Shown: positions 196 to 53,100 of the stretch, in pieces
Layout of the letters: every line of letters begins with the position of its first letter
Position numbering within the stretch: position 1 is the first letter of the stretch
Source of the DNA: Ptychomitrium polyphyllum
Taxonomy: Eukaryota
Direction of reading: 5' to 3'
Assembly: GCA_973851085.1 (NCBI GenBank)
Contig: OZ316776.1
Location: 9,052,001 to 9,116,000 of the forward strand
Length of the DNA stretch: 64,000 bases
Program-made: the position numbers and the translations under genes
The notes under the pieces: generated by a model
Databases searched by the model: none
Seen by the model: only the letters and a program-made list of their open reading frames with translations
What the model was told of the DNA's origin: nothing

Positions 196-2724
196 ATGGA
201 TGCCGCCGCACACACAGCCTCGACGTCGATGCTAGCGCCGTCAGTGTCATTGCGACCGGGAGGGGGGAGGTCAGTGGCGTTTCGGCCGTTCGGAGGGGGG
301 AGTGGCGTAAGTGGAGCAGGTCGGGACGGAGGAGCGACTGGGACGCGTGCGGGGCCGCAGGGGGAGGGATTTGAGAACCCTAATGCCGGGAGATTTGTGA
401 GGGGGCCTGTGCACGGGAGCTTTGTGCGAAGCTCCCGGGAGAGGATCCGGTATGGGCGAGAGGAGTTGTTCAAGTTTAGAGACGCCTGCACCGAGGCACC
501 GGAGGAGCTGGTAAACTCGGGGATCGATGGTTTGATTAACACCGCTGGCGGGGAGGACGACTGGAGTCGGAGGGAGCCTAGGGATTTGCCGCAGCCGCCC
601 ACGCCCCGGGTTGTGGAGCCGGACACGAGAGATTGGAAGGCTCGGGCGCCGGCCCCGGCGCCTGCCCCAGCGCAGGAGGAGAGATCCTCGTCGCGCGAGC
701 AGCAGCGGGACAGGAACCCTAAGCAGCGCAATGAGAGGAGCGAGAGGGGCGAGAGGGGTGACAATCGCGGCCCCCGCGAGCAGGCGAATTCGGCCCAGGC
801 GCAGAGGCAGGCGGAGAGCGCCCCCGCGGGCCCGCCGCCCGCAATTGTGAAGGCGGCCAATCCGTGGTCGGCCCGGAGGGGCGCGCAGTCGGAGAAGGAG
901 AAGGTGTACCGGACGGTGAAGGGCATCCTGAACAAGCTGACGCCGGAGAAGTACGATCTGCTGGCGGAGCAGATGATGCAGGCGGGGATCAGCTCGGCCG
1001 AGATCCTGCAGGGCGTAATTTCGCTCATCTTCGACAAGGCGGTGTTGGAGCCGACGTTCTGCGCCATGTACGCGCAGCTGTGCGTGCAGCTGAGCAAGGA
1101 GCTGCCGGAGTTCCCGGCGGAGCAGGCCGGGGAGAAGCCGATAACGTTCCGGCGGGTGCTGCTGAACACGTGCCAGGAGGAGTTCGAGGGCGCGGACGCG
1201 CTGCGGGAGGAGATCAAGAAGCTGACGAAGCCTGAGCAGGCGGTGGAGCGGGACGAGAAGGAGAAGAGGGTGAAATTGCGGACGCTGGGGAACATCAAGC
1301 TGATCGGCGAGCTGTTCAAGCAGAAAATGCTGCCGGAGAAGATCGTGCACGCGTGCATCCAGGAGCTGCTGGGGCAGGACCCGAAGGCGACCCCGGCGGA
1401 GGAGAACGTGGAGGCGCTGTGTCACCTGTTCACGACGGTGGGGAAGCAGCTGGAGGAGAGCGCGAAGTCGAAGATGGCGTTCGACACGTACTTCGCCCGG
1501 CTGAAGGCGATCGGGGAGAGCAGGGGGCTGCCGTCGCGGATCCGGTTCATGGTGCGCGACATTCTGGACATGAGGTCGAACAAGTGGGTGCCCCGGCGCG
1601 AGGAGATGAAGGCGAAGACGATCAACGAGATCCATGCGGAGGCGGAGGCGAAATTAGGTCTGCGGCCGGGGATGATGGCATTGCGGAACGGGAGAGCGCC
1701 CGCGCTGCCCGGGTTCACGCCCGGCGCAGGAGGGATGATGCCTGGGATGCCGGGAATGCCTGGAATGCCCGGAGGTGCGATGCCCGGGGCCCCGATGATG
1801 GGGAGCTTCCTGGGGCCGGGGCTGGAGGCGGACGGATGGGAGACGGTGAGCACAGCACGGCGGAGCAGGAAGGACAGCACGGGGGTGCTGCCAATGCCGG
1901 GAGGAGGAAGCATCGGGGGCATGGGCAGCGGGGCGATGCCGGGAGCGCCGGGCGGGGGGCAGGCGCGGTTCGGGTCGCCGTCGATGCGGGCGGGCGGCGT
2001 GGGCGCGAGAGTGCTTCCGCAGGGCAGCGGGGGGTACGGGTTCATGGGCAAGCCGAGCGCGCTGCTGGGGACGGGGCCGCCGAAGTCGGTGGCGGAGGTG
2101 CCCAAGGCAGCGGAGGCAGTGAAGGAGGTGGCGCGGCCGGCGCCCGCAGCGGCAGCGGCCGCGGCCGCCGCCGCTCCGTCGGCGGATCTGACGAAGAAGT
2201 CGGAGTCGCTGCTGAAGGAGTACTTTTCGATCGTGGACCTGAACGAGGCCGCGCTGTGCGTGCAAGAGCTGAAGAGCGCGGCGTTCCATCCGGAGTTGGT
2301 GAGGCTGGCGATCGCAACGGCGCTGGACATGCGGGAGAAGGAGTGCAGCCTGGTGCTGAAGCTGCTGGCGCACCTGCAGTCGAAGGGGGTGGTGTCGAGC
2401 TCGGAGGTGAGGGGTGGCGTGTTGCTGGTAGCGGAGGGGCTGGAGGACATGGCGATGGATGCGCCGCTGGCACCGAAGCGGCTGGGAGGCATGATCGCAG
2501 GGCTGGTGCTGGCGGGAGCGTGCGAGCTGGTGTTGGTGGAGGAGGCGACGGCGAAGGTGGAGGACGAGGTCTTGCAAAAGGACGTGGTGAAGGCCGTAGT
2601 GGATACGTTGAAGTCGAAGGAGAACGAGGTACAGCTGGGGGAGGTGTGCGGGAGTGCTTCGGTGGACAAGGAGGGTCTATTGAGCGTGACAGTGGGAAGC
2701 GACCTTGCGAAGCTGTTTAGCTGA
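196..2724 (+). CDS. eIF(iso)4G: Translation initiation factor eIF(iso)4G, copy A (intronless CDS, 842 aa from ATG 196)
   Basis: eIF4E-binding-type motif RIRYGREELF; MIF4G domain (VKGILNKLTPEKY...FDKAVLEPTFCAMYAQLC...TLGNIKLIGELFKQKM); C-terminal MA3 domain (SLLKEYFSIVDLNEAALCVQELK). The first in-frame ATG is at 196. Confidence 0.95.
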   Translation: MDAAAHTASTSMLAPSVSLRPGGGRSVAFRPFGGGSGVSGAGRDGGATGTRAGPQGEGFENPNAGRFVRGPVHGSFVRSSRERIRYGREELFKFRDACTEAPEELVNSGIDGLINTAGGEDDWSRREPRDLPQPPTPRVVEPDTRDWKARAPAPAPAPAQEERSSSREQQRDRNPKQRNERSERGERGDNRGPREQANSAQAQRQAESAPAGPPPAIVKAANPWSARRGAQSEKEKVYRTVKGILNKLTPEKYDLLAEQMMQAGISSAEILQGVISLIFDKAVLEPTFCAMYAQLCVQLSKELPEFPAEQAGEKPITFRRVLLNTCQEEFEGADALREEIKKLTKPEQAVERDEKEKRVKLRTLGNIKLIGELFKQKMLPEKIVHACIQELLGQDPKATPAEENVEALCHLFTTVGKQLEESAKSKMAFDTYFARLKAIGESRGLPSRIRFMVRDILDMRSNKWVPRREEMKAKTINEIHAEAEAKLGLRPGMMALRNGRAPALPGFTPGAGGMMPGMPGMPGMPGGAMPGAPMMGSFLGPGLEADGWETVSTARRSRKDSTGVLPMPGGGSIGGMGSGAMPGAPGGGQARFGSPSMRAGGVGARVLPQGSGGYGFMGKPSALLGTGPPKSVAEVPKAAEAVKEVARPAPAAAAAAAAAAPSADLTKKSESLLKEYFSIVDLNEAALCVQELKSAAFHPELVRLAIATALDMREKECSLVLKLLAHLQSKGVVSSSEVRGGVLLVAEGLEDMAMDAPLAPKRLGGMIAGLVLAGACELVLVEEATAKVEDEVLQKDVVKAVVDTLKSKENEVQLGEVCGSASVDKEGLLSVTVGSDLAKLFS

Positions 2725-5700
2725 GGTTTGGTAGTTAGATTAATTCGAGTATTGACCGATGGGTTTGATCATAATTGTTCTAGAAGATTGATATGGCTAT
2801 ATCTCTTTGGTCCTGAGGATAGGTATTATGTCTTGTATCCTTAGTCTTATAGCATAATGTGCTGCGCATGTTCTGAGGTATTCTAGTGATGTAATTCAGT
2901 TGTTCCTCTGTTTTTTGAGGCTTGCGAAACGTTGTTTTTGCTCCGAGTTTTAGCATGAATTGTTTTCCGGATTTCCGCACCTCACACCTCGACTTCTAAT
3001 TATAATTCTGCATCAATTGAATACTTGGAGGAGACAGTGGTACTTTTTCGGAATTATGTTTTTGAATGTGTTGCATACGGGTATGGGCTTCTAATTTTTA
3101 GAGGTTTGGCCTTTCTGCAGTATAATTATATGTTTACCTTCGAATCCAGTGGGTTTGATTTTTCGTCACAGTGGATTCACTTCACAGAAATGATTATTGA
3201 AGTCTAGATTATGCTTCAGAAATTTTCCATGGAGTTGTCAGATATTTCATTTGCATCTGGCTTCTGGTTGCGAGTGTAGTTGAAGTGTTTTGGACGTCAA
3301 GCATATGGTACATGGTTTCTTTTTGTGTTGCCTGGTTTGGTTTTCATTTTGGATTAATAATTTTTATTTAATCATCAATGCATCTACTCTTCTTTTCTAT
3401 GATAACTGAGAAAGCAAATCTCACAAATATAAATTGAAGAGGTTGTATGAGACGGATATAACCGGTGCCAGCTCCTGGTAAATCATTATCGAAAGCCTCC
3501 GACGAAGAACGATCGTTTTTGTTTTCTAGTTTGATGAAGAAGCTACGCAACAAACTTTGCTTTACCCACCTACGTTTCTTGCATTCTATCCCCAAGACCA
3601 CGAATGATTACGAACGCCTATTGCAGGATCACGCTTGTAGGCTACAGCTTCCCTGAAAGAAAGACCAGAGTTGAAGATACTGTTGATTTTGATGTCTTCA
3701 CATGTTCTGCACATATGACAGATTAGTAGAACATACAGTAATTAAAATCTTATAAAACTGGAATATCTATGAGATTTGTTTAATAAAACAGACTACCTTG
3801 TGACATTGAAATTCTGGTCGATTTTGTGCAATGAAAGTCCATTCACAGAAGCAATTTTAGATGCCATTTACTAATGTGACAAACAGCTTGTTTATGCAGG
3901 CATTGGTAATGGCTCTGTCAGTGTTCGTCATGCCAAAACCTTATGACCAAGATCCTGACTTGCCCCATCTGCATACACATCGAGGATGTGCTTACAAAAT
4001 ATTTCTCCAAGCCTGTTTCGTTTCAATTCCAAATATCGTGTAATCGAACACAATTCAAAGTTATTGACGTCTTTACATTCTGAATTATTTCCATTTACTC
4101 TTCGTTGGTAAGACGAATCTACTAATAACGTGAAAGAAAATATGGTATTGTACATCAAAAACTCAACCCAAGGCAATTGCTACAAATCCCGCGAGACGTA
4201 ACCAAGCTAGACAAACCCAACCATCTCATTTTCTCCTTGTTCAGCTGTGACTCATTCTCATATCCCATAAACCCTGGAACAAAAGAAAATCGACTATCAT
4301 CCGTCAATAAAAGTCCAGATAGAACCACAATCCAGGACATGACCAATAAAACTAACCCCACAAAGCAACTCATACTCTGTAATCCATATTACAAAAGCCC
4401 TCTTCCAAGGTTTCTCTAACCACAGAATCACATTAAACTCTACAAAAGCGGTCCTAAGGTAAAATAAAAACTCCAACTCATAAACAACCAAAAAAGCGTA
4501 TGAGACAAAGGACCATAATATAACTCATCGCATTAAGAAAAATTTCACGAGTCCCAAAGAAATAGAGACAAAGCTAAAACTTAAAACATAACAACACCTC
4601 AGAATGAGTGTACATATCCTATAACGTAGAGACTAATTAATACGGAGAAGCAGTAAACCCCAACTCCAAAGACGTTGCTCACAGAGCCAAAACTGGGCTA
4701 TAGCAGCGTCCGATCTCTCTCAACTAAACANNNNNNNNNNNNNNNNNNNNNNNNNNNNNNNNNNNNNNNNNNNNNNNNNNNNNNNNNNNNNNNNNNNNNN
4801 NNNNNNNNNNNNNNNNNNNNNNNNNNNNNNCGTTGTTTTTTGCTCCGAGTTTTAGCATGAATTGTTTTCCGGATTTCCGCACCTCACACCTCGACTTCTA
4901 ATTATAATTCTGCATCAATTGAATACTTGGAGGAGACAGTGGTACTTTTTCGGAATTATGTTTTTGAATGTGTTGCATACGGGTATGGGCTTCTAATTTT
5001 TAGAGGTTTGGCCTTTCTGCAGTATAATTATATGTTACATCCCTTCAATCCAGTGGGTTTGATTTTTCGTCACAGTGGATTCACTTCACAGAAATGATTA
5101 TTGAAGTCTAGATTATGCTTCAGAAATTTTCCATGGAGTTGTCAGATATTTCATTGCATCTGGCTTCTGGTTGCGAGTGTAGTTGAAGTGTTTTGGACGT
5201 CAAGCATATGGTACATGGTTTCTTTTTGTGTTGCCTGGTTTGGTTTTCATTTTGGATTAATAATTTTTATTTAATCATCAATGCATCTACTCTTCTTTTC
5301 TATGATAACTGAGAAAGCAAATCTCACAAATATAAATTGAAGAGGTTGTATGAGACGGATATAACCGGTGCCAGCTCCTGGTAAATCATTATCGAAAGCC
5401 TCCGACGAAGAACGATCGTTTTTGTTTTCTAGTTTGATGAAGAAGCTACGCAACAAACTTTGCTTTACCCACCTACGTTTCTTGCATTCTATCCCCAAGA
5501 CCACGAATGATTACGAACGCCTATTGCAGGATCACGCTTGTAGGCTACAGCTTCCCTGAAAGAAAGACCAGAGTTGAAGATACTGTTGATTTTGATGTCT
5601 TCACATGTTCTGCACATATGACAGATTAGTAGAACATACAGTAATTAAAATCTTATAAAACTGGAATATCTATGAGATTTGTTTAATAAAACAGACTACC

Positions 5701-8700
5701 TTGTGACATTGAAATTCTGGTCGATTTTGTGCAATGAAAGTCCATTCACAGAAGCAATTTTAGATGCCATTTACTAATGTGACAAACAGCTTGTTTATGC
5801 AGGCATTGGTAATGGCTCTGTCAGTGTTCGTCATGCCAAAACCTTATGACCAAGATCCTGACTTGCCCCATCTGCATACACATCGAGGATGTGCTTACAA
5901 AATATTTCTCCAAGCCTGTTTCGTTTCAATTCCAAATATCGTGTAATCGAACACAATTCAAAGTTATTGACGTCTTTACATTCTGAATTATTTCCATTTA
6001 CTCTTCGTTGGTAAGACGAATCTACTAATAACGTGAAAGAAAATATGGTATTGTACATCAAAAACTCAACCCAAGGCAATTGCTACAAATCCCGCGAGAC
6101 GTAACCAAGCTAGACAAACCCAACCATCTCATTTTCTCCTTGTTCAGCTGTGACTCATTCTCATATCCCATAAACCCTGGAACAAAAGAAAATCGACTAT
6201 CATCCGTCAATAAAAGTCCAGATAGAACCACAATCCAGGACATGACCAATAAAACTAACCCCACAAAGCAACTCATACTCTGTAATCCATATTACAAAAG
6301 CCCTCTTCCAAGGTTTCTCTAACCACAGAATCACATTAAACTCTACAAAAGCGGTCCTAAGGTAAAATAAAAACTCCAACTCATAAACAACCAAAAAAGC
6401 GTATGAGACAAAGGACCATAATATAACTCATCGCATTAAGAAAAATTTCACGAGTCCCAAAGAAATAGAGACAAAGCTAAAACTTAAAACATAACAACAC
6501 CTCAGAATGAGTGTACATATCCTATAACGTAGAGACTAATTAATACGGAGAAGCAGTAAACCCCAACTCCAAAGACGTTGCTCACAGAGCCAAAACTGGG
6601 CTATAGCAGCGTCCGATCTCTCTCAACTAAACAGCTTCGCAAGGTCGCTTCCCACTGTCACGCTCAATAGACCCTCCTTGTCCACCGAAGCACTCCCGCA
6701 CACCTCCCCCAGCTGTACCTCGTTCTCCTTCGACTTCAACGTATCCACTACGGCCTTCACCACGTCCTTTTGCAAGACCTCGTCCTCCACCTTCGCCGTC
6801 GCCTCCTCCACCAACACCAGCTCGCACGCTCCCGCCAGCACCAGCCCTGCGATCATGCCTCCCAGCCGCTTCGGTGCCAGCGGCGCATCCATCGCCATGT
6901 CCTCCAGCCCCTCCGCTACCAGCAACACGCCACCCCTCACCTCCGAGCTCGACACCACCCCCTTCGACTGCAGGTGCGCCAGCAGCTTCAGCACCAGGCT
7001 GCACTCCTTCTCCCGCATGTCCAGCGCCGTTGCGATCGCCAGCCTCACCAACTCCGGATGGAACGCCGCGCTCTTCAGCTCTTGCACGCACAGCGCGGCC
7101 TCGTTCAGGTCCACGATCGAAAAGTACTCCTTCAGCAGCGACTCCGACTTCTTCGTCAGATCCGCCGACGGAGCGGCGGCGGCCGCGGCCGCTGCCGCTG
7201 CGGGCGCCGGCCGCGCCACCTCCTTCACTGCCTCCGCTGCCTTGGGCACCTCCGCCACCGACTTCGGCGGCCCCGTCCCCAGCAGCGCGCTCGGCTTGCC
7301 CATGAACCCGTACCCCCCGCTGCCCTGCGGAAGCACTCTCGCGCCCACGCCGCCCGCCCGCATCGACGGCGACCCGAACCGCGCCTGCCCCCCGCCCGGC
7401 GCTCCCGGCATCGCCCCGCTGCCCATGCCCCCGATGCTTCCTCCTCCCGGCATTGGCAGCACCCCCGTGCTGTCCTTCCTGCTCCGCCGTGCTGTGCTCA
7501 CCGTCTCCCATCCGTCCGCCTCCAGCCCCGGCCCCAGGAAGCTCCCCATCATCGGGGCCCCGGGCATCGCACCTCCGGGCATTCCAGGCATTCCCGGCAT
7601 CCCAGGCATCATCCCTCCTGCGCCGGGCGTGAACCCGGGCAGCGCGGGCGCTCTCCCGTTCCGCAATGCCATCATCCCCGGCCGCAGACCTAATTTCGCC
7701 TCCGCCTCCGCATGGATCTCGTTGATCGTCTTCGCCTTCATCTCCTCGCGCCGGGGCACCCACTTGTTCGACCTCATGTCCAGAATGTCGCGCACCATGA
7801 ACCGGATCCGCGACGGCAGCCCCCTGCTCTCCCCGATCGCCTTCAGCCGGGCGAAGTACGTGTCGAACGCCATCTTCGACTTCGCGCTCTCCTCCAGCTG
7901 CTTCCCCACCGTCGTGAACAGGTGACACAGCGCCTCCACGTTCTCCTCCGCCGGGGTCGCCTTCGGGTCCTGCCCCAGCAGCTCCTGGATGCACGCGTGC
8001 ACGATCTTCTCCGGCAGCATTTTCTGCTTGAACAGCTCGCCGATCAGCTTGATGTTCCCCAGCGTCCGCAATTTCACCCTCTTCTCCTTCTCGTCCCGCT
8101 CCACCGCCTGCTCAGGCTTCGTCAGCTTCTTGATCTCCTCCCGCAGCGCGTCCGCGCCCTCGAACTCCTCCTGGCACGTGTTCAGCAGCACCCGCCGGAA
8201 CGTTATCGGCTTCTCCCCGGCCTGCTCCGCCGGGAACTCCGGCAGCTCCTTGCTCAGCTGCACGCACAGCTGCGCGTACATGGCGCAGAACGTCGGCTCC
8301 AACACCGCCTTGTCGAAGATGAGCGAAATTACGCCCTGCAGGATCTCGGCCGAGCTGATCCCCGCCTGCATCATCTGCTCCGCCAGCAGATCGTACTTCT
8401 CCGGCGTCAGCTTGTTCAGGATGCCCTTCACCGTCCGGTACACCTTCTCCTTCTCCGACTGCGCGCCCCTCCGGGCCGACCACGGATTGGCCGCCTTCAC
8501 AATTGCGGGCGGCGGGCCCGCGGGGGCGCTCTCCGCCTGCCTCTGCGCCTGGGCCGAATTCGCCTGCTCGCGGGGGCCGCGATTGTCACCCCTCTCGCCC
8601 CTCTCGCTCCTCTCATTGCGCTGCTTAGGGTTCCTGTCCCGCTGCTGCTCGCGCGACGAGGATCTCTCCTCCTGCGCTGGGGCAGGCGCCGGGGCCGGCG

Positions 8701-8802
8701 CCCGAGCCTTCCAATCTCTCGTGTCCGGCTCCACAACCCGGGGCGTGGGCGGCTGCGGCAAATCCCTAGGCTCCCTCCGACTCCAGTCGTCCTCCCCGCC
8801 AG
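545..8802. repeat. Inverted repeat; arms 545-2720 and 6627-8802 (2,176 bp each)
   Basis: The arm ends mirror exactly (545+8802 = 2720+6627). ORF-track translations in several frames are identical on both arms. Identity breaks at ctggcggggagg (5' side) and just before the stop codon (agc tga versus agt tga). Confidence 0.93.
2930..6633. repeat. Direct duplication 2930-4730 / 4831-6633 across a 100-N gap (4731-4830); probably an unmerged contig overlap
   Basis: Identical ORFs recur at an offset of 1903. The few differences I saw are small indels close to the start of the second contig. Confidence 0.9.
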
Positions 8803-9127
8803 GGCCAGCCGTCAAACCTTCAATCCCCGAGTTTACCAGCTCCTCCGGCGCTTCCGTGCACGCCTCCCGAAACTGCAACAGTCGATCCCTCGCATACCGA
8901 ATCCTCTCATGCGAACTCCTGACCGGCCTCTCAGCCGCCCGCATCACAAACTTACTCGTCGCAAAATTAGGGTTCGGTGTCGACTCGTCATGAAACGCAG
9001 TCTTGGTTCCATTCTGATTCGGTACACTATATGGCCGGAACGACAGAGATCTACCACCTCCTCCGGGACGCAAGGACACAGACGGAGGGGCACTCTGTGA
9101 GGAAGGCGGCGGCGCGGTGGCATCCAT
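6623..9127 (-). CDS. eIF(iso)4G: Translation initiation factor eIF(iso)4G, copy B (intronless CDS, 834 aa from ATG 9127)
   Basis: Starts MDATAPPPSS; eIF4E-binding-type motif RIRYARDRLL; MIF4G and MA3 domains identical to copy A. Confidence 0.95.
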   Translation of the reverse strand: MDATAPPPSSQSAPPSVSLRPGGGGRSLSFRPYSVPNQNGTKTAFHDESTPNPNFATSKFVMRAAERPVRSSHERIRYARDRLLQFREACTEAPEELVNSGIEGLTAGPGGEDDWSRREPRDLPQPPTPRVVEPDTRDWKARAPAPAPAPAQEERSSSREQQRDRNPKQRNERSERGERGDNRGPREQANSAQAQRQAESAPAGPPPAIVKAANPWSARRGAQSEKEKVYRTVKGILNKLTPEKYDLLAEQMMQAGISSAEILQGVISLIFDKAVLEPTFCAMYAQLCVQLSKELPEFPAEQAGEKPITFRRVLLNTCQEEFEGADALREEIKKLTKPEQAVERDEKEKRVKLRTLGNIKLIGELFKQKMLPEKIVHACIQELLGQDPKATPAEENVEALCHLFTTVGKQLEESAKSKMAFDTYFARLKAIGESRGLPSRIRFMVRDILDMRSNKWVPRREEMKAKTINEIHAEAEAKLGLRPGMMALRNGRAPALPGFTPGAGGMMPGMPGMPGMPGGAMPGAPMMGSFLGPGLEADGWETVSTARRSRKDSTGVLPMPGGGSIGGMGSGAMPGAPGGGQARFGSPSMRAGGVGARVLPQGSGGYGFMGKPSALLGTGPPKSVAEVPKAAEAVKEVARPAPAAAAAAAAAAPSADLTKKSESLLKEYFSIVDLNEAALCVQELKSAAFHPELVRLAIATALDMREKECSLVLKLLAHLQSKGVVSSSEVRGGVLLVAEGLEDMAMDAPLAPKRLGGMIAGLVLAGACELVLVEEATAKVEDEVLQKDVVKAVVDTLKSKENEVQLGEVCGSASVDKEGLLSVTVGSDLAKLFS

Positions 9128-11776
9128 AGCTGGGCGACAGCAGAGAAAAAAAGAAACACACAACGGCAGCCACAGAGCACAAGAAGCCACTCTCCCTCTC
9201 TCTCTCTCGGTCGCTCTCTCTGCACGGAGCCGGAGACCCTGCCCTTCCAAGTTCCCCTCTCACTGTCCCTCAAGTCCCTCGAACTTGTTTCCCGTCTTCG
9301 TCTAAGCTACTCAACCATGTGCAGCCGGGCTGCCCGCCAAGTCTGGCTTGCTTACCAACTTGGCTTGTGCCTCTGCTAAGCCTGCCGGACCGGTTCCGAG
9401 TCGTCTATGCGGAGCCCCTGAGTCGGCCTCGTCGCCGCTGCCCCTTCTCACTGCCGGAACCAAGTCACCTGTGAAACCATCGACTAACTTAACCTAGGGC
9501 TGATGAGATCACCTGCCTGGGCACTGCCGCATTGACCTTAGGACCGTAGAAACGGATTTTAGATGTGAGACGATACGGTATTGCGAGGTTCTGGGAATTG
9601 GTACGCCAGCATGTGCTGGCTCGTCATTAGGGGTTTGATATTGTGTTTTTATGTTATCTAACAGACGCGAGTTACGCTTGGTTTGATTTTCATAAAAATT
9701 GTTGAAGTGGGCAGAGTTAATTTTGGATGAATAATGTATAGTGTTTGGATTGGAGTGCAATTCACGAGGCTGTTTTTGGAATGCTTGTTGAAAAAAATAA
9801 AGTAGGTTCTTAGTGTATTAACTTGTAATACTATTGGATAATATATTATATTTTTGTTATGAAGTTATTATAATTTATCATGGTTTATATGTATAAGGTT
9901 TAAAACTTGAACATAATTGGATAATAATATGAATAATAACATGTATTTTTCTTTGGATTATTTATATTTGTTTTTACTTATGCCTTGTGCATCTTGAAAA
10001 GTATCTGAAATCTTTCATTATATATAAAATTATTTTATTACAACTTTTCATTATGAAAATTAATTATAGACTTATATTTTATATTCTTCTATCACAATGT
10101 ATATCTTTATTTAGAGATAATAATGGCTAAGATTTTAATTTTCTAAAGAATTTCGTATTTTTTATTAATAAGTTTTTTTTATATGATTTTAAAATCAAAC
10201 TAAATCTTATGTTATTAAAGTTTTAGTTAAAAACTTGAAATTTTTTAATCATACATTAAAATAGAATTTAAACTTCTTATACAAGTTTTACATTCATTAG
10301 CATCAATTACAGCAAGCAATGTTAAAAATTTAGGATTAATTCTAAGTTCACAATTCAAGCAAAACATTTTGTGACATAATAAAAAACCATATATCTTCAT
10401 GCATCTTTTGGTATTACAAAGGTATGTTTAGTACATGAGATTTAATTAAAGTGATATATATTAGTTGTAGGCAATATTTATGAAATTAGTTGGAATATTA
10501 TGAAGTTGACAAAGAAGTCTAATGATTCAATATTACCAAAAGATGATTCTAATAACTAAAGTAAATTTGACTCATCCCATTTTGTCTCTTAGAATTCCAA
10601 CATAATGCCATATTCCCTTTAACATATTCTTGATTCACATTCACTACAAGACACTTATACTTTAGAATAGTAATTGTGAATGGTGCATAAATTATGGCCT
10701 CCATGTTTGAAAGGAATCTCAAATATGTATATTGACCTACTGTTCACAAAGTTCACTACATTTTTACATTTTTACATTTTTACATTCAAAGGAAGACCTA
10801 AAAATGACATCTTCACAAATAACTAGGTCATTTGATCACGCTCAGAATCTGCCTATGAGCGTTGCTTCGCCAACCGAAGCCCTTCGAGGACATCTGAAGC
10901 GTGTTTGCTTCGACGACAGAGCTGGTGTTCAGAAGTGATGCTGTAACCTAATTGCAACGCCGCGCAGATGCCGGGCCGGGTTGCACCGTTTCACGACCAT
11001 CGCGGGTTGGATCGGCATGTAATCCTAACGGGTTCCAGCAGACGAATAACGGGCCCTTTTTCCACGAAGCTCAACTCGCCCTTGACATGAAGCTGGGGAA
11101 ACTTGCCAGTTCCACTATCCTAGTGATACCTAGGCTATACTCAGCCGATACTAGTGCAATTTAGGTGCAATTCTCTGGCGGGTATTTTCTTTCTCTCTCC
11201 TCTTTCCTCCTCACTTAGGGGGCAGTTCGGGGAAGCTTGCATTACTCCAAAACTATACTCTCTCTAGACCGGTACTGCATCCGAAACGGGCACTATCGAA
11301 TACTGCTAAATTAAATTCTAGAAAATGTAGAGAATGTCGGTTGCAGCTTCTGTGACACATATCGGACACCACCTTTGTCTTTTTTGGAATTTATAACGTG
11401 CATCGAAGGTTTATGTCCGTTTTGGGTGCAGTGACGTTGTTGTGTTTCCAATTTAATTCGGTTTATATCTGCATGATACACAGCAGATACTAGTGTAGTG
11501 CCCCGGTGATATTTAGGCGGGTGTGTTGTCCTTCTCTGCTCTCTGGTTATGATCTCGCTCCTCTTTTTGAGTGAGAACAAAGTCTCAGAGCTCATATTAA
11601 AGAGCGCAAGGCGAGCGCGAGGTGAGGGCGAGAGTGACCGATTGCGGAGCGGTTGCGTATCCGTGTTCTGTTCGAATGTGGAAGTTTGTCTTTTTGGAGT
11701 GGGTGTTGTAGAGGGGAAAAAGAAGAGGTTTGGAGTTGGTTTTGTCCTCAGTTTGGTTGCTGGGAGGGTTTGAGTG

Positions 11777-13049
11777 ATGGCGTACGGGGAGCAGCGGGAG
11801 GTGCGGCTATGGCACGACAAACGGGAGAGGGAGATGTACGACAACTTCGCGGATTTGTTTGCCATCATTAAGACGACGGAGAAGCTGGAGAAGGCGTATG
11901 TGCGGGACGTGGTGAGTGCCAAGGAGTATGAGCCGGCATGTTCCAAGTTGATTGCACAGTTTCGGACGTTGAAGACGGCGTTGAAGGACAGCGTGCCGGA
12001 TGTGGAACAGTTTGCCGAGACGTATAAGATGGATTGCCCGGCGGCTCTTAACCGGCTGTTGGTGTCGGGAATTCCTGCCACTGTTGAACATAAGAGTGCG
12101 TCATCGGATTCTGGTACTGCGGCCGCTGTCGCAGAGTGCGTGCAGATTTTTATCACGGCTATGGATACGTTGAAGCTTAACATGTTGGCTGTTGACCAGG
12201 TATGAAAGTCTTATCAAATCCTCTGTTCTCAGATTATGGTTGTTAATTTTTGTTAATGGTTCGAGGTGTTTCAATGTGTTTCCAGGCAGCGATAAAGGAA
12301 ACTACACGTCATGTGAATGACACCTTCCTTTTCTTAGTCCTTCTCCTGTTGTAAATTTCTGATCATCAGTATTTCTTGCTTTAACAAATTTAGGTAATGC
12401 GCGCGGCAGTTTGAGTAAGCACACTTACAGGAGATAACATACTTATTATTTTTGAACAGAGCCATTGAAACCGTGAAGCTGTAGTTTTCACACAGAGTTC
12501 TGGCATAAATCCTAGATAGCACAGGACAAATTCAGCTAGAATTAGTCTCTTTCTTTTCCAGCTTCTCCTTTGAATAGGGTTGTTGTCTTTGAGCTTTTGT
12601 TAGCCGTGATCTGCTGTGCATAATGCCGACTCTTAGTTGATGACTCGAGGTCTGATGTTACCGTATTTATCACTAGGGATATTCCCTTTGGTTACGATGA
12701 AACAGTTGTTTGAAATCTTAATGGCTAGGTATATATGATTATCAATTAGGGGGTTGCCATTGTTACCAGGCTTTGGTTGCTTATGGAGGATCTACGATTG
12801 TGCTGTTAACATGAACTTGTGGGTATGATCCAGGTTCACCCTATGATGTCAGACTTAATTCTGGCGTTGAGCAGGGTCCCACAGCTATCACCTGATTTTG
12901 TAGGAAAGGTGAAGGTGAAGGAGTGGATAGCAAGGCTGAACAAAATGGGTGCTTCCGAAGAGCTTACTCAAGAGCAAGCAAGGCAGCTATCTTTTGATTT
13001 GGAGATGTCATACAATGGCTTCATCCATTCCCTGCCGAAGTCTTCTTGA
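11777..13049 (+). CDS. VPS28: ESCRT-I subunit VPS28 (exons 11777-12199 and 12834-13049; 212 aa)
   Basis: EVRLWHDKREREMYDNFADLFAIIKTTEKLEKAY...FITAMDTLKLNMLAVDQ|VHP...LTQEQARQLSFDLEMSYNGF. The GT-AG intron joins in frame. Confidence 0.95.
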
Positions 13050-28000: not shown

Positions 28001-31000
28001 TTATGACATATTGTTAGTGTGCTAAATGAACATGAGGAATGTCTATACCTCAGTTGTTTGTCCCTTACGTCGACCAATATCAAAAGCTCCCAGCTTTAGG
28101 ACCTTAAAACGTTCTGCCATATACCGCAAGCTCTCCTTCATTTGATACACACAAACTACATCCGGATCGATCTCCCAATAGAAAAACTCACGCCATGCTG
28201 TTAGCATGGCTATTTCAGAGTCGAATTCCCGTACTTCAATTCCTGGCAGTGCCCCTTGCTGAGAACTCTTGCCATAAGTAAAAACAACCTGCCTTATCCT
28301 ATCTCGATCCCCCAGACAGCGAAGAATATGAGATATCACAAGCACCGGATCCCTTGATGGAATTGCAGAGCCTCCACTTGCTAGATTGCTGAGGCCCTCA
28401 ATGTCAGTAACACTAGCTTCCTCATCGCCAGGAAAACCTGATTTGATTTCTCCACTAGCCCTACTTTTTGTAGTCAGCTTGACGAGAGATTCAGATTTTC
28501 CTCTGCCTCTACCTCTACCTCTACCTCTTCCTGCTTTAACAGTCGAACCACTGCTGCTTTCCTTAGTTCCAGTCAACACTTTCCCACCACCAGAACACTG
28601 TACATGTAAGGAGACTATCCGTAATGGGGCGATTAGATTCCAAGTAGCCTCCCCAGATATTGAAGGCAAAGAAGGTCCGCTACCACTTGAAGAAGTGATT
28701 AGGCTTGGCTCCTCCCATGTGCAGATATTACTTTTAATCTGAGTGAATTCAGGGAGGTCCTCCGCATCTGGAGTAGATGTGTCACTCTGGTCGTCCATGT
28801 CCAAAATAATTTCTCGACTCCGTTGCGTACCAAAATCCTCACTGTTATTCAGGACAGTTGATGCATTTGCAGCTGATTCCGTGAACTCCATGTGATGTGT
28901 CGCATCTGGGGTTAATCCAACGAGATTCCGCCAGCATGCAGCCAGCTCTTTGGAGCACCTCGTCTTCTGTTGATCATGCGGAATTGGTTTAGCCTGCTTG
29001 ATTTCCACCCAAGAGCCTCCTGCCATTGCTGTATCACAAAAGAATCGCATGCCCAACTGCCCAAGCAAGTAACTATCATGTGGATAGAATGTTCAGGAAA
29101 ATGAAAATTGAGAATAAGAAAACACATGTTTCAGCTCAACTCTCATGCGATTACCGCTATCAAAGCATAACTGCCATAGATATCGAAAGTTTTACACGTC
29201 AAAATAGCTAATGGCGAAAATATACATGGCGAAAATGTACATGACAAACGTGGATTTCATCAAACAATATCAAGGACAAGAAAGCCAGATTCATCTCGTT
29301 AGTTCAGAGGTGCCAATGGAGAATGGAAAAAACCTATCAATTACATACAAGATACTCGAATTATATAGATAGGCACTAACTTTGATGCCCTCTTCATGAG
29401 AAGTGTGATCCTTCCAGACGAGGCCTTCGGATTGCATCTCGTTCTCCTCAGCTAGTGCCGTCAGCTCCTTCGAAACTACACCAATGTCTTTACCCCTCCA
29501 TACTTCCACCTACATCATGAAGTCAGATATAGGAGTAAGTTTACAAGCAAATCATGTCCACAAAAGACATATATTTCCTTCCTGTTCTCAAACTATTCCT
29601 CTTTAAAACCCGCACGAACACAACATCCAAGGCAATAGAAACAAACCTTTAGGAACAAAAAGGGTCCCCCACGACGGTAATACATAAGCGGAGTCCTGTA
29701 TTCTACTGTAATTGCGGCAACCTGCAAGAGCACAACACTTGTATGAACGAACACAAGTAACCCAGACATGACCTGATACGGTTTGCATGAAACTCGCGAA
29801 CGCCTGCAACTGCATGCTAATTAAATGCAAGTTGAGATCCCTCAGATGATTAGAACTTCTGCAGAAATAACAGTCCAAAAAAAAACCATTTAATGAATTG
29901 GTCTTTGTTCATTGAGCTGTTTTCAGTCGCTTAGAAATAAAATCTGTTTCAAAAGTACCAAAACAACGAAAAACTCCTGTTGGAAGTCAAGATATCTTAC
30001 AAACTGATCGCTGGAGCCACCAGTTTTCTTACGGCTGGCCAGCACTTTTTGATTAAGATGCTCTTTAACGGTGTCCAAGCTGCCTTCATTTAAGGGCACT
30101 TCCTTCCCATCAACTTTACACACAGGAGCTGGAAACCAGAAATAAGGTACATAATCTGCACCGCCAACCGATTTATGGTAATTTCTCTGTTCCAAAGTTT
30201 TGTTACAACTCAAGAAAATCTAAGAAGCAAATCAAAAAACAGCATATACTTGTGTAAATGTGCTTATCTTCAACATTTATCTTGACCAATAGACCACCAC
30301 AAGCATCAAGTGCTGTAGAACAATCTCCAAGCTGCAGATAGCCTTCTAAGGAATTCAAAGTTCAGACATGGAGTATAATAGCGCTTCTGAGCTAAAGCTC
30401 GACACGGTGCAACAAAGACGGGCAGCTCAGCACAAAGCTATGTCACTGATGACAATTAAACCAAGATAGTAATTCTAATTGGAATGACTGCACCCACTGC
30501 TTTCATTATTCTAAACGACTATTGGCTAGCCTGACGTCCAAGCATTACTTCAGAGGCACCAACCATTTACGTGAACTGCAATGCTTTCACCATCCGATTT
30601 CAACCCGTAGAGAAGCACCTGCTCCACATACACACAAAAAAAAGAAGCAGAATAAGCTTCCCCATTATTATTGTTTCAGCTGTACGCCTCACGATTGACT
30701 CACATCCATCATATGGCGTATTCCCAAGATGCCAAGATGCCAAGATAGTCAGACACCATGGCAAAAAATTACGGCACACACACCAACCTAACAACGAAAC
30801 CAAAGCCTGACACCAAAAGCATCCCTGAAAGATTCGAAGGATCCTTCCTTTGGCATAAGAAACACTCGATCCATCAAAAACATCCCGGAATCCAATGCTC
30901 CCTGAGCGACTAAATAACATCTTCAAGGGCAGACTTCAAGCTCATACAAGGCCACTGTAAGAACTCCCCACAGTAAAAGTCTCCGGAAAAAATTAATGAT

Positions 31001-34682: not shown

Positions 34683-36833
34683 CTAGCAGGCGCTCTTGGG
34701 AACGCAGTAGAGGGGCCCGGCGTCTTGTGTCATGGCGGGCACCCACGAGACGTGGCGAGGCACGAAGCTGCGAGCTCTGTCGTAGTTGCTGGCTGACGCG
34801 TTCTGCACTCCGGAGCCAGTGAAGAAGGCACCGTTTGCGAAGCTGTCGCCAGTGGATGTCCAGTCCCACTTTTGCCATCCGCCGAACGTGGGTCCATCGT
34901 CGTCGATCCGGGACGTCACCTAGAAGTGAACAATGGCGTGCGAGAATAAGGAGACAATCTGGGTTGACCCCCACGTTCGACCGGAGATGTAGGATGAGTT
35001 TGTTACCTCTTTCCGGTTGCTGGCGTCAGGGGCAATGAATTGGTTGCATTGGCTCAAAAAAGTTGGATCCTCGCTTCCACCGATGGCGTATGAGCCCCAC
35101 CCTGAGGTGTAGAAATTGTTGGCCACATGGCAGTTTCCGTAGCGACATCTGCAAAAGAAGTGAGGCTCATCAGTACCCTGGAATCGGAGTTCAAGTTTAC
35201 ATTCATTGTTTCTACAAAAACAGAGCCGGTTGCGAGGAACAAATTCACATCATTCAGCATCGAACATCATGAGTGTTTCAGAGAAAAGCGAATGCTCACC
35301 TGGGCATTCTCTGGGTAAGCCCAGGTCCAAATTTGTTGAAGGCTACTGTAATCTGCATGTTTCTGTCGTAGTCATCCTTGGGACTCGCCCCGAACAGCAT
35401 CACCTGAAAAGAACATCAACAAGTTCATTAAGAGGATATGTTTCATGAAGATGCAGAAAATTTTTGGAGGGATTGATGATCAGAGTGGCCAAGCCCCACC
35501 TTGTTGTGATTCTCGAAGTAGCAGTTTGAGACGGTAATGTTGGTAGAGTTTTTCGTTGCATCGATCAAGCCATCGGTCGACTTCGACAGAAAGCAATGGT
35601 CAACCCAAACATTGACCGAATTTTTTATGTGAATGGCGTCGCCATCGCTAGAGCCACGGAATGTTCGAAGGTTCGGCGCGGTGAGGATGTGGTGAGGGCC
35701 TGAGGGGAGAATGTCGAGGACATAGATTCCATGGATGATAACGTTGGAGACCCCCTCGATGGTGATTTGGGAGGTGCCCACGAGGTGAATTTCTGCGCCG
35801 CGCCCGTCGATGGTCTTGTAGCTCGACATGACAAGCTCGCCTCTGAGCTCGATAGTCATGTTCTTGATGAAGATGATCCACAAGGGCTCCGTGCGGGTGG
35901 CGCCGTAGCGCAGGGTCCCGGGGGCAGGGTTGTCGATGTCGTCGTCGTTGCTAGTGACGACGTAGAGCATCCCGTTCTTGCCTCCGAAGGCATGTTGTCC
36001 AAATCCAACTGCACACGATGCGAGCGCTTGACGACGGTCCTGCCAGTTGGGATCGCAGCGCCAGCAATCGTCAATGTAGTTCCCTGTTTTGCATGACCCC
36101 TGACTTCTAGGTTTCTGAAATGGCATTAAGAGTTGTGGCTCTTCTGCAGCCTCATCAACGTCGACATTCTCTTGCTGATCTCTACAATCACCATGAAATC
36201 AGTGCCAGATGATAAGATAACACCTCTGGAACTGTCAAAGTCTAGAATTCCTGAAGGGCTGTGACATCTCTCAATTGTGTAATCATTCCAGAATGACTCT
36301 GTTAACTCGGTAAAAATCTGGATGCCAACCAGTCGAGCCAATCCGTAGTTAAGATGTACACTGTTGATGATTCTTAATAAAATCGTCTGGAGCGTCCGAA
36401 ATAAGATAATCAATGGAAAAAACTATGAAAACAATACTTGATGAGGACTGATTTGAAAGATGAGGAAAAATCAGGCACTGTTGTTGGACACTTACTCTCG
36501 ATACTCTGCGGTGTAAATGAATCCTGCGTCTGAGGTATTGATGAACTTTTCTGGTGCTTCGAGGTCGAGTTCATTAGACTCGTACTCTTGATTCTTGTCA
36601 CCAGCTGGTGCTACTCTTGGGTAGTCCAGGAGGTTGGCAATGGATTGAAGGAAAGCTCTCAAATTCGTGACCAAAGTGGCTTTTGGGATAAGAAGGTCCT
36701 TAGTAGGAATGGTTGCAACGTTGGTACCGATGTTGTTGTTTAGAATCTGATTCGATGAATGAGCTTCACAATGTTGGAAGACTAACAGGAGGATGGCAAG
36801 AACAAGGAGATAGTGAGCTGCCGTATTCGCCAT
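34683..36833 (-). CDS. Pectate lyase (PL1 family), secreted; about 5 exons
   Basis: Signal peptide [74 protein letters not shown] and YAIGGS motifs; last exon VTSRIDDDG...[10 protein letters not shown]. Confidence 0.93.
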
Positions 36834-50100: not shown

Positions 50101-53100
50101 AACAAGAGCACATTAGACCTTAATAATAAGCATACAAGACTTCGAGACGTACAAGGCCTCCGTCATCTCTCTATAACCTAAGACGCTAAGTCCATATCCC
50201 CTGCATCAGCAAGTGTAGAAAGAGGAAACAATTCGAAAATAAGAATTATCTCTGCCTGAGTCATTGCATGTGTATGTGATCAATCTGGAGGCCAAATGTA
50301 TGTAACGACGAACGTTCTTATAAAGTATGTGGTCCAGGAAAAGCAAGCTAAATTAGTGGACAACACAACTTTGACATCTACAAACTTTCACTAATAAAAC
50401 GGAAGCTGACCATGTTCATCGTAAGAGTTCCCGTTTTGTCACTACAGATAGCCGTTGCAGAACCCATAGTCTCGCACGCCGACAAGTGCCTGACCTGAAC
50501 ATCATCCATACAATTTTCAGAATAGGAAATTGACCCTTGAGGAAAGACACAGGGCTACTTGGTTTCAGCAGAATACAGCTTTAGATCCCACAGATCCACG
50601 ATATAACTTACTAAGGCCCGGTCGTCCATCATCTTTGACATTGAGTATGCCAGCCTGTTCAGCAAGAGAGCAACATTAAAAGAGTCACACCCTAGCCTGT
50701 AAATCATGAGCTACGCATAGATGGTCTAGCAGCAACTTGAAGAAACAGAAAAGCCAATAGAACGGTAAAATAACTCAAGCAATGAACAAATACGAGATGG
50801 ATGCTGAATACTGTATTTGTCAAGATACTCACGTCAAAGTTACTGCAAGAGGCAGTCCTTCCGGCACAGCCACCACCACAATGGTCACCTGAGCTTACTC
50901 CACACTTCACTGCGTGAGTTCAGGAAAGTTGTGCTCTCCCTTACGTTAGAATTACAGAAATGCTTTCATGGAAAGATGATAATCTGGAAACTTTCTTTTA
51001 AAAAACATGCATAATATAGAAAAGCTGCACATGATTGTTCACATTTGTCAAGTGTGCTATAAACTTTGCATTGACTCCTTAAACTCCATACATTAGCATG
51101 CTTGCAAGGGACATAATGTGATCATCCAATGTCCAAGTCTAGCTTCTAACGTCCTTCCAATGACAATATTTTCAGGTACTAGTGCTATGTAAACAAAATT
51201 ATTATCTTCTACATTTAGCATGTGCAGTGGCTATTCTCTAACTAGGGCCAGAGAACAGGAGAAAGTATAAGAGGTTAGAAGAGCTGAGTACTGACTGCAA
51301 TTGCGAAATAGTCGACGATTGTTTTTCCATCAGCTCCACTGAAATGCTTGAAATCAACGGTCGCCAAGAACCTTCAAAAAATAACAGACCCAGTCTACTT
51401 AACGTGGCAACATCATGATCCAAATCTATTGATGTACTGATGAGGTAATCCGTCAGCGTAGAAATTCTGTAACATGAACTCGAAGAAATAAAACAGTGTT
51501 CTCACCGGCAGATGAGGACAATGAAAACGAGCACAGCAAAAAAAACGCCAATTTTGCCAATGGTTGTGGCAAGGCTATTAAGGCGCTCCTGCAAAAACTC
51601 CTCTTAAATGTAAGAAAAGGGCCTCCTGCAATGAGTAAGCATCATCACGTCTACAGAACATCCAAGTTATTTAACCAAACCAAACATGAATGACCTAAAA
51701 TAAGAACAGCATATTTAGACAGAAAATGTTGCCACGTTAAGTAGACTGGGTCTGTTATTTTTTGAAGTAGCGTAGCTGGAAGGGCCGAAGATAAATCACA
51801 AATCACAAATCACAAATCAACACTTCAGCAAATGAATTTTATTTTTAGAAAAGCACAAATCAGCACTTCAAAACCAAAGATAAAGACAAGAGCTGAACAT
51901 GAACAAAAAACAAGGTTTGTATTCATTGGTAATTTCTTTAATATGCAACGATATGCTGCATATAAGGACTGTAAAAAAGAAATCATTACCAACCTGCAGT
52001 GGGGTTTCCTCGTCATTATCCTCACTAATGGTCGCCATCAATTTCCCCCACTCCGTTGACATCCCCACGGCTGTTACCTGCACAGGTCCTACATGACTAT
52101 CGTCCTTGCTGAATGGTTCTCTTCCATTCAATTTCAAAAAGAAGCATATCATTAAACGAGAAACCTTTAGGTAATGTACTCTTGACTTCTTAACTCTATT
52201 CACGCAAGTTTCGCAAGTGCTCATCCATTAATTTCTTCAATATTACATAGAAATAGACAAGCAAAACATGAATTTGGTTGGTGGCAAGCATTTCTAGTGC
52301 AAGCACCATGATTTCACAGGAATTTATTCGATCAAAAAGAACACCAGAGGACCGCTGCATTAGCACAGAACAACGCAGAAGCTTAATCAAGAACAAACCA
52401 TCATATCCCCAAATCCATCTATAACTTTACACCCTGAAAGCATGAAGGGGTGCTCCACTTCATCCTTAGGCATCTGCACATACGCAGTAATCCTATTATT
52501 TTCTAAAAAGAGGTACGCATATACGTAGGTTACAAATTATGTATCAGCATAATTGACTCACTAACATAGTAGTCTGGAGTCTGGTTTAGTAATACAAGTA
52601 TCACTGAAGTCCACAATTATATTCCACCACATCAATACACAGAACAATGTGATTAAAGATTGAGTTGTATAGAGAGATACAAATTTCACGTATGAAAGCC
52701 TGTGGCACAGTACTAAAACTTTCATTCTCATTTTGTATACCTAAGTAATATATACATGATAATTGTTCAGAATTAAGCTTGCAATCTCTTTCTCTGTTGG
52801 TAATAGAGTGAATCAAGAAACAATTAAGAATAAGGAGATGAAGGGATATACAGACAGGGTCACTTTCGCCCGTCATACTCGACTCGTCTACAAGCATCGA
52901 ATGCCCTTCTATCAGCAGTCCATCTGCTGGAATCTGCACTCAAATGAAAATTACCACACAACCATGTCAACCATGTTTAAATGTTCGCAACTCCGTACCT
53001 ATTGACTTGAACAATATCATGCATCACATAATCTTTTAGTAAGTGAAGAGCACGTTTCTGTAATTGATTGTTTCACACTCATGTTCTGTTTACAAACTTC

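Follow-up and report, generated by a model that had tools for sequence, protein, structure and literature searches.

Results

An inverted eIF(iso)4G pair with shared bodies and different heads

The window (the whole 64,000-nucleotide stretch of Ptychomitrium polyphyllum DNA analysed here) carries two eIF(iso)4G-type genes in tail-to-tail orientation. They very probably descend from an old inverted duplication, the bodies of which would have been kept alike by repeated GC-biased arm-to-arm gene conversion, with the heads diverging. Both copies are intact single-exon ORFs, and the PF02854 and PF02847 domains were found above the cut-off in each. Both proteins also have the short N-terminus of eIF(iso)4G (~840 aa in total, with a predicted eIF4E-binding-like site). 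The nearest named protein is from Physcomitrium patens (75%), followed by Sphagnum proteins (55-61%). The features of the pair are the following:

196 to 2724, forward strand: copy A, intronless eIF(iso)4G-type gene, 842 aa (ORF list; Pfam MIF4G at aa 239-463, MA3 at aa 666-774)
6623 to 9127, reverse strand: copy B, intronless eIF(iso)4G-type gene, 834 aa (ORF list; Pfam MIF4G at aa 231-455, MA3 at aa 658-766)
545 to 2720, forward strand: arm A of the homogenised tract, 2,176 bp, GC3 0.88 (self-comparison; contigs of read run X1)
6627 to 8802, reverse strand: arm B of the homogenised tract, exact reverse complement of arm A (self-comparison)
196 to 544, forward strand: A-type head, codons 1-116, unconverted, GC3 0.66 (74% identity to the head of protein P0001, 52% to that of P0122)
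8803 to 9127, reverse strand: B-type head, codons 1-108, unconverted, GC3 0.59 (84% identity to the head of P0122, 52% to that of P0001)
451 to 471, forward strand: predicted eIF4E-binding motif core of A, YGREELF (8/15 match to the angiosperm eIFiso4G consensus, PMC3352336 section 3.7)
8876 to 8896, reverse strand: predicted eIF4E-binding motif core of B, YARDRLL (10/15 match to the same consensus, PMC3352336 section 3.7)
11777 to 12205, forward strand: VPS28 coding stretch, synteny marker upstream of copy B (Pfam)

Self-comparison of the window gave a single long inverted match (439-2725 against 8908-6622), in which the longest exact run spans 2,176 bp (545-2720 against 8802-6627). The exact tract begins within codon 117 (copy A) or codon 109 (copy B), and its final base is the second of the last sense codon; position 2721 is a mismatch, and the stop codon and one further base match again. 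None of the 397 four-fold sites in the tract differs between the arms, a homogenisation of synonymous sites for which selection on the protein does not account. The heads of A and B have the same residue in 57 of 106 aligned codons; mismatches between them fall on 119 of the 318 aligned bases and on 17 of the 31 four-fold sites (55%). The upstream regions and 3' flanks align only in patches. The original prediction, made from the sequence alone, had described arms identical at synonymous sites, a divergence of the first ~110 codons, the upstream regions and the 3' flanks, and an end of identity at the last sense codon. All of this was confirmed, the identity of the arms on the basis of the assembly and contigs. 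The diverged head holds in the window but is not universal, as only one head type was found in organisms E, F and I and in a P. patens pair (see below).

Other coding stretches of the window (Pfam) include a family B DNA polymerase exonuclease domain (28043-29092) and a pectate lyase (35443-36198). A perfect 42-bp inverted repeat with arms 312 bp apart lies at 51372-51413 and 51726-51767; the exons around it resemble those of a P-type Ca-ATPase, a tentative label.

Two arms in the organism of the window

An assembly gap lies between the two copies, and the region was resolved as follows:

2725 to 4719: true spacer between the stop codons, 1,995 bp, containing both unrelated 3' flanks (self-comparison; contigs of X1 and X3 join 2720 to 4723 on opposite strands)
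4731 to 4830: 100-N assembly gap at an unmerged overlap (self-comparison)
4831 to 6633, forward strand: artefactual second copy of 2930-4730, 99.6% identical with small indels (self-comparison)

The presence of 1.8 kb as direct copies on both sides of the gap (2930-4730 and 4831-6633) indicates an unmerged overlap, and the stop-to-stop spacer is therefore 1,995 bp, not ~3.9 kb. The assembly overstates it by ~1.9 kb through this false 1.8-kb direct duplication. The spacer is without an inverted repeat.

The read runs listed as matching the locus (24 runs, 12 organism codes) all consist of contigs, and none is recorded as RNA, which has no bearing on expression; seven were compared, one per organism, X5 twice. 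Contigs drop variants and depth is no copy number, so depth was used only beside contig layout. No single contig bridges both arms in any run, and the adjacency of the arms in the relatives rests on spacer homology. X1, ~87% of which was read, comes from organism A, which is possibly the same sample as the window, and is not independent of it. Its body contigs (545-1648 and 1659-2720, depths 813 and 719) have 0 letters other than those of the window. They are accompanied by an A head (depth 245), a B-type head entering at 473 (depth 240), an A tail (depth 368) and a B tail joined from 2720 to 4723 on opposite strands (depth 405), a layout of two heads, one body and two tails. Among the change places listed for X1, 37 in number, 17 are A-versus-B head mismatches, 18 lie in the spacer and at most two are left. 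Two real, nearly identical arms in the organism of the window are thus well supported, with a few differences between them still possible because contigs drop variants.

X1 also differs from the assembly at 18 listed sites and by small indels in part of the spacer (window 3726-4658), which likely reflects a second haplotype; no differences are listed in the tract, the A-head contig or 2691-3631.

Heads group by orthologue and bodies are identical

In the head tree (15 proteins), B grouped with P0002 and P0122 at 100/100 and A with P0001 at 86/87. In the body tree of the same size, the A and B bodies are identical and were placed with P0001, P0002 and P0122. The AU test (11 rows) rejected a clade of the A and B heads (p-AU 1.3e-5). 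The five-row clade supported by the body at 99/98 was likewise rejected for the head (p 0.011, 11 rows). The best head tree has a clade of A, P0001 and the P. patens head at 63/41; the heads give a short alignment of low complexity, and the grouping of A with P0001 was not starred. A more distant B-type head is found in P0197 (locus L052), with 68% identity to B and 50% to A. By the head trees and the AU test, the unconverted part groups by orthologue, as had been predicted for the N-termini, and this suggests a duplication older than the split from P. patens. A metagenome scan for close loci returned Sphagnum-type loci and L052; P0122's own contigs were not among them.

Concerted evolution in other organisms

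In organism D (X5), one 2,194-bp body contig at depth 77.6 covers 550-2725 and differs from the window by 140 other letters and 24 gap letters, which stand at full contig depth in the rows shown. An A-head contig (depth 32.3) and a B-head contig (depth 49.7) join the same end of this body contig, and the tail contigs have depths of 40 and 46. The B-head contig differs from B of the window at 41 places in 485 bp, extends to VPS28 as in the window and also covers 11657-12245; at its loose end, 29 of 30 letters match B and 20 of 30 match A. If the arms of organism D differed from each other as D does from the window, ~13% of their 31-mers would be expected to be shared and separate contigs would result. 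Most of the D-specific changes are therefore present in both arms. The tract boundaries are nearly the same in organisms A and D (545/550 and 2720/2725). The tract is thus more alike within than between species, as predicted, in contigs and not phased arms, and the pattern in D is, as far as contig sequences can tell, concerted evolution.

The fragmentary organisms B and C fit in their depths (body 14 against heads 6, and body 28-30 against 8-16 respectively). Organism B (X3) has a B-side contig at single depth up to 955 and no A-tail contig, which does not fit the pattern. As to copy number and position, D has two heads, two tails and VPS28 synteny, and the contigs of E, F and I indicate two copies.

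In organisms E, F and I, single contigs of 2,766, 2,775 and 2,657 bp cover the body (195, 182 and 170 differences from the window respectively) and continue unbroken for ~490-520 bp into an A-type head. The signs of two copies are two tails in F (depths 26 and 33 beside 70.5, one of them homologous to the B tail of the window), a two-branch bubble in I (depths of 80 and 94, with 183 beside them), and for E a contig break at the stop codon together with a depth of 50 against 32 at VPS28, a ratio as in D. E, F and I may be one clade and represent one event. In P. patens, two near-identical eIFiso4G proteins (P0129 and P0130) come from the same chromosome-length record, with accessions five apart. 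They agree at 116 of 117 positions in the head and 730 of 736 in the body, and differ mainly in the last 13 residues. As the shared contig takes in the head in E, F and I, the 5' end of the tract is not at the same place in all lineages. In some relatives the B head seems to have been overwritten by that of A, with A as the donor judging from E, F, I and the P. patens pair. Such a loss speaks against an essential role for the B head.

GC content and eIF4E-binding motifs

The GC3 of the tract (0.88; MIF4G 0.96) is higher than that of VPS28 (0.68), of two other coding stretches (0.62 and 0.37) and of the two heads. In Sphagnum-type loci, MIF4G has a GC3 of 0.55-0.63, which may partly reflect the baseline of their own genomes. 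Compared with the orthologue L052, four-fold differences with GC in the window and AT in the other outnumber the reverse by 23:1 in the tract, against 8:7 in the head (Fisher p 0.003), in a test of one unpolarised pair in which L052 may itself have undergone conversion. The GC enrichment is confined to the tract, in line with an earlier suggestion of GC-biased conversion; it fits such a process, and translational selection on the codons of a highly expressed gene remains an alternative.

The unconverted heads differ in the predicted eIF4E-binding motif. The eIFiso4G consensus, ERVRYTR(D/E)QLLZLRE, derives from angiosperms; the available text of the same source lists five eIFiso4G genes in P. 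patens and states that plants often retain one consensus-like and one divergent eIF4E-binding site, the meaning of which is unclear (PMC3352336).

Discussion

Mechanism and alternative explanations

Given a break in one of the arms, which lie ~2 kb apart, the other arm would serve as the template for repair, plausibly in haploid tissue, which offers no allele for this purpose. Homologous recombination is efficient in mosses and is proposed to contribute, together with the haploid phase. Conversion needs near-identity and so stops where the arms have drifted; it would halt at the stop codon and, in this lineage, on the 5' side, where the tract boundary is ~25-30 codons past the predicted eIF4E-binding motif. 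This 5' boundary would be lineage-specific, and the outcome would be two proteins with one body, two heads and separate upstream regions.

Could the identity be produced by the assembly, with one real body used twice or clearly different arms merged into one consensus? The original prediction had cautioned that a collapsed consensus was possible. The gap and the unmerged overlap lie between the arms, and the left contig of the assembly ends 7 bp into arm B. Small bubbles also get popped in contigs. However, in X1 the body is joined to both heads and to both tails, B-head and spacer differences explain 35 of the 37 change places listed there, and the two-copy layout was found again in independent organisms. 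A collapse would moreover require arms that are already near-identical, which is the finding itself. Collapse is unlikely to be the cause of the identity, and an assembly artefact of either kind is very improbable. Purifying selection alone has next to no chance of explaining two such bodies. MIF4G is strongly conserved (94-98% among close mosses), but the absence of four-fold differences between the arms contrasts with a body that differs from relatives at 2-9% of bases, low-complexity linkers included, and the between-species differences common to both arms contradict selection as the sole cause.

A recent re-duplication of the body, independently in each lineage by birth and death, could also place a young body behind the old second head without repeated conversion. 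The sharing of the head in E, F, I and the P. patens pair would, taken alone, resemble young whole-gene duplicates. Yet organisms A and D have in common both old heads, the spacer, the VPS28 synteny and the boundaries (545/550 and 2720/2725), and F retains a tail homologous to the B tail of the window; a duplicate landing at one place every time amounts to conversion. We consider this explanation very improbable. The inference of an old inverted duplication with arm-to-arm conversion is supported by the D body, the head trees and a GC excess that is limited to the tract. The earlier terms "ongoing" and "identical" have the assembly and contigs as their basis; present-day activity and exactness go beyond these. 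Overall, the pair is a well-supported case of real mosaic concerted evolution between inverted paralogues, a process that is already known and that shows with unusual clarity at this locus.

Adjacent Sphagnum genes were considered as the same duplication and rejected, because L002 and L015 have a degenerate partner in head-to-head orientation. In these Sphagnum-type eIFiso4G loci (L002 2089-2552, L015 1-819) the partner lies ~7 kb upstream, with one copy degenerate (73-78% at the nucleotide level). The adjacent Sphagnum proteins have a few species-shared residues in the linker and MIF4G region, where the GC3 of L002 is 0.62 against 0.41-0.43 in head and tail; the pair is possibly an independent, patchy case of conversion. 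A more distant moss-like cluster (P0004, P0137, P0139-P0143) consists of mosaics of two body variants behind one head, and these may be alleles, paralogues or chimeric assemblies.

Relation to known systems

No paper on this locus was found in the literature searched, in which subscription journals are thinly covered, and a mention in moss genome papers or their supplements is possible. Opposite-strand arrays of P. patens are reportedly the most alike (Rensing et al. 2008). For highly similar tandemly arrayed genes of P. patens, gene conversion has been proposed (PMC3045890, citing Lang et al. 2008). The present locus resembles these as near-identical neighbouring paralogues in a moss; unlike that proposal, drawn from one genome according to the available text, it adds a cross-species test and old unconverted heads.

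Mosaic concerted evolution is described in the mammalian pairs BMP8A/B, DDX19A/B and TUBG1/2 (Carson and Scherer 2009, PMC2720389). As here, these are old near neighbours with one part homogenised within species and the other following the orthologue, GC3 is higher in the concerted part, the boundaries are conserved, and BMP8A/B is also inverted. As far as the available text of that paper goes, the moss pair differs in being an intronless plant gene with a 2-kb spacer, a tract end at the stop codon and a lineage-dependent 5' boundary. GC-biased arm-to-arm conversion is described in primate X palindromes (PMC8981503), and inverted paralogue pairs are described in Caenorhabditis (PMC1803023). 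In both, arms are closer within than between species, as in the moss, and the primate palindromes share the GC enrichment; unlike these cases, to the extent that the accessible parts of both papers cover them, the coding sequence alone is homogenised here, with arms of ~2 kb and a spacer without an inverted repeat.

A tentative and rather doubtful reading is that this moss eIF(iso)4G palindrome, predating the Physcomitrium split, uses conversion for modular isoforms, with a shared GC-driven body and two sets of eIF4E-binding heads and promoters that are tuned differently. In some lineages the boundary would be held immediately behind the binding site by selection, and in others the B head would have been lost to the A copy. 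In gene trees and Ks plots, pairs of this kind pass for young duplicates, and short-read assemblies collapse them. With a lineage-specific boundary beside the predicted eIF4E-binding site, it becomes testable whether a boundary is kept by selection or lost homology alone. If the modular-isoform reading is true, the locus would provide a natural series in which to test what makes conversion tracts stop in a haploid plant. The proposal of conversion between neighbouring paralogues, made from a single moss genome, gains cross-species evidence at a core translation factor.
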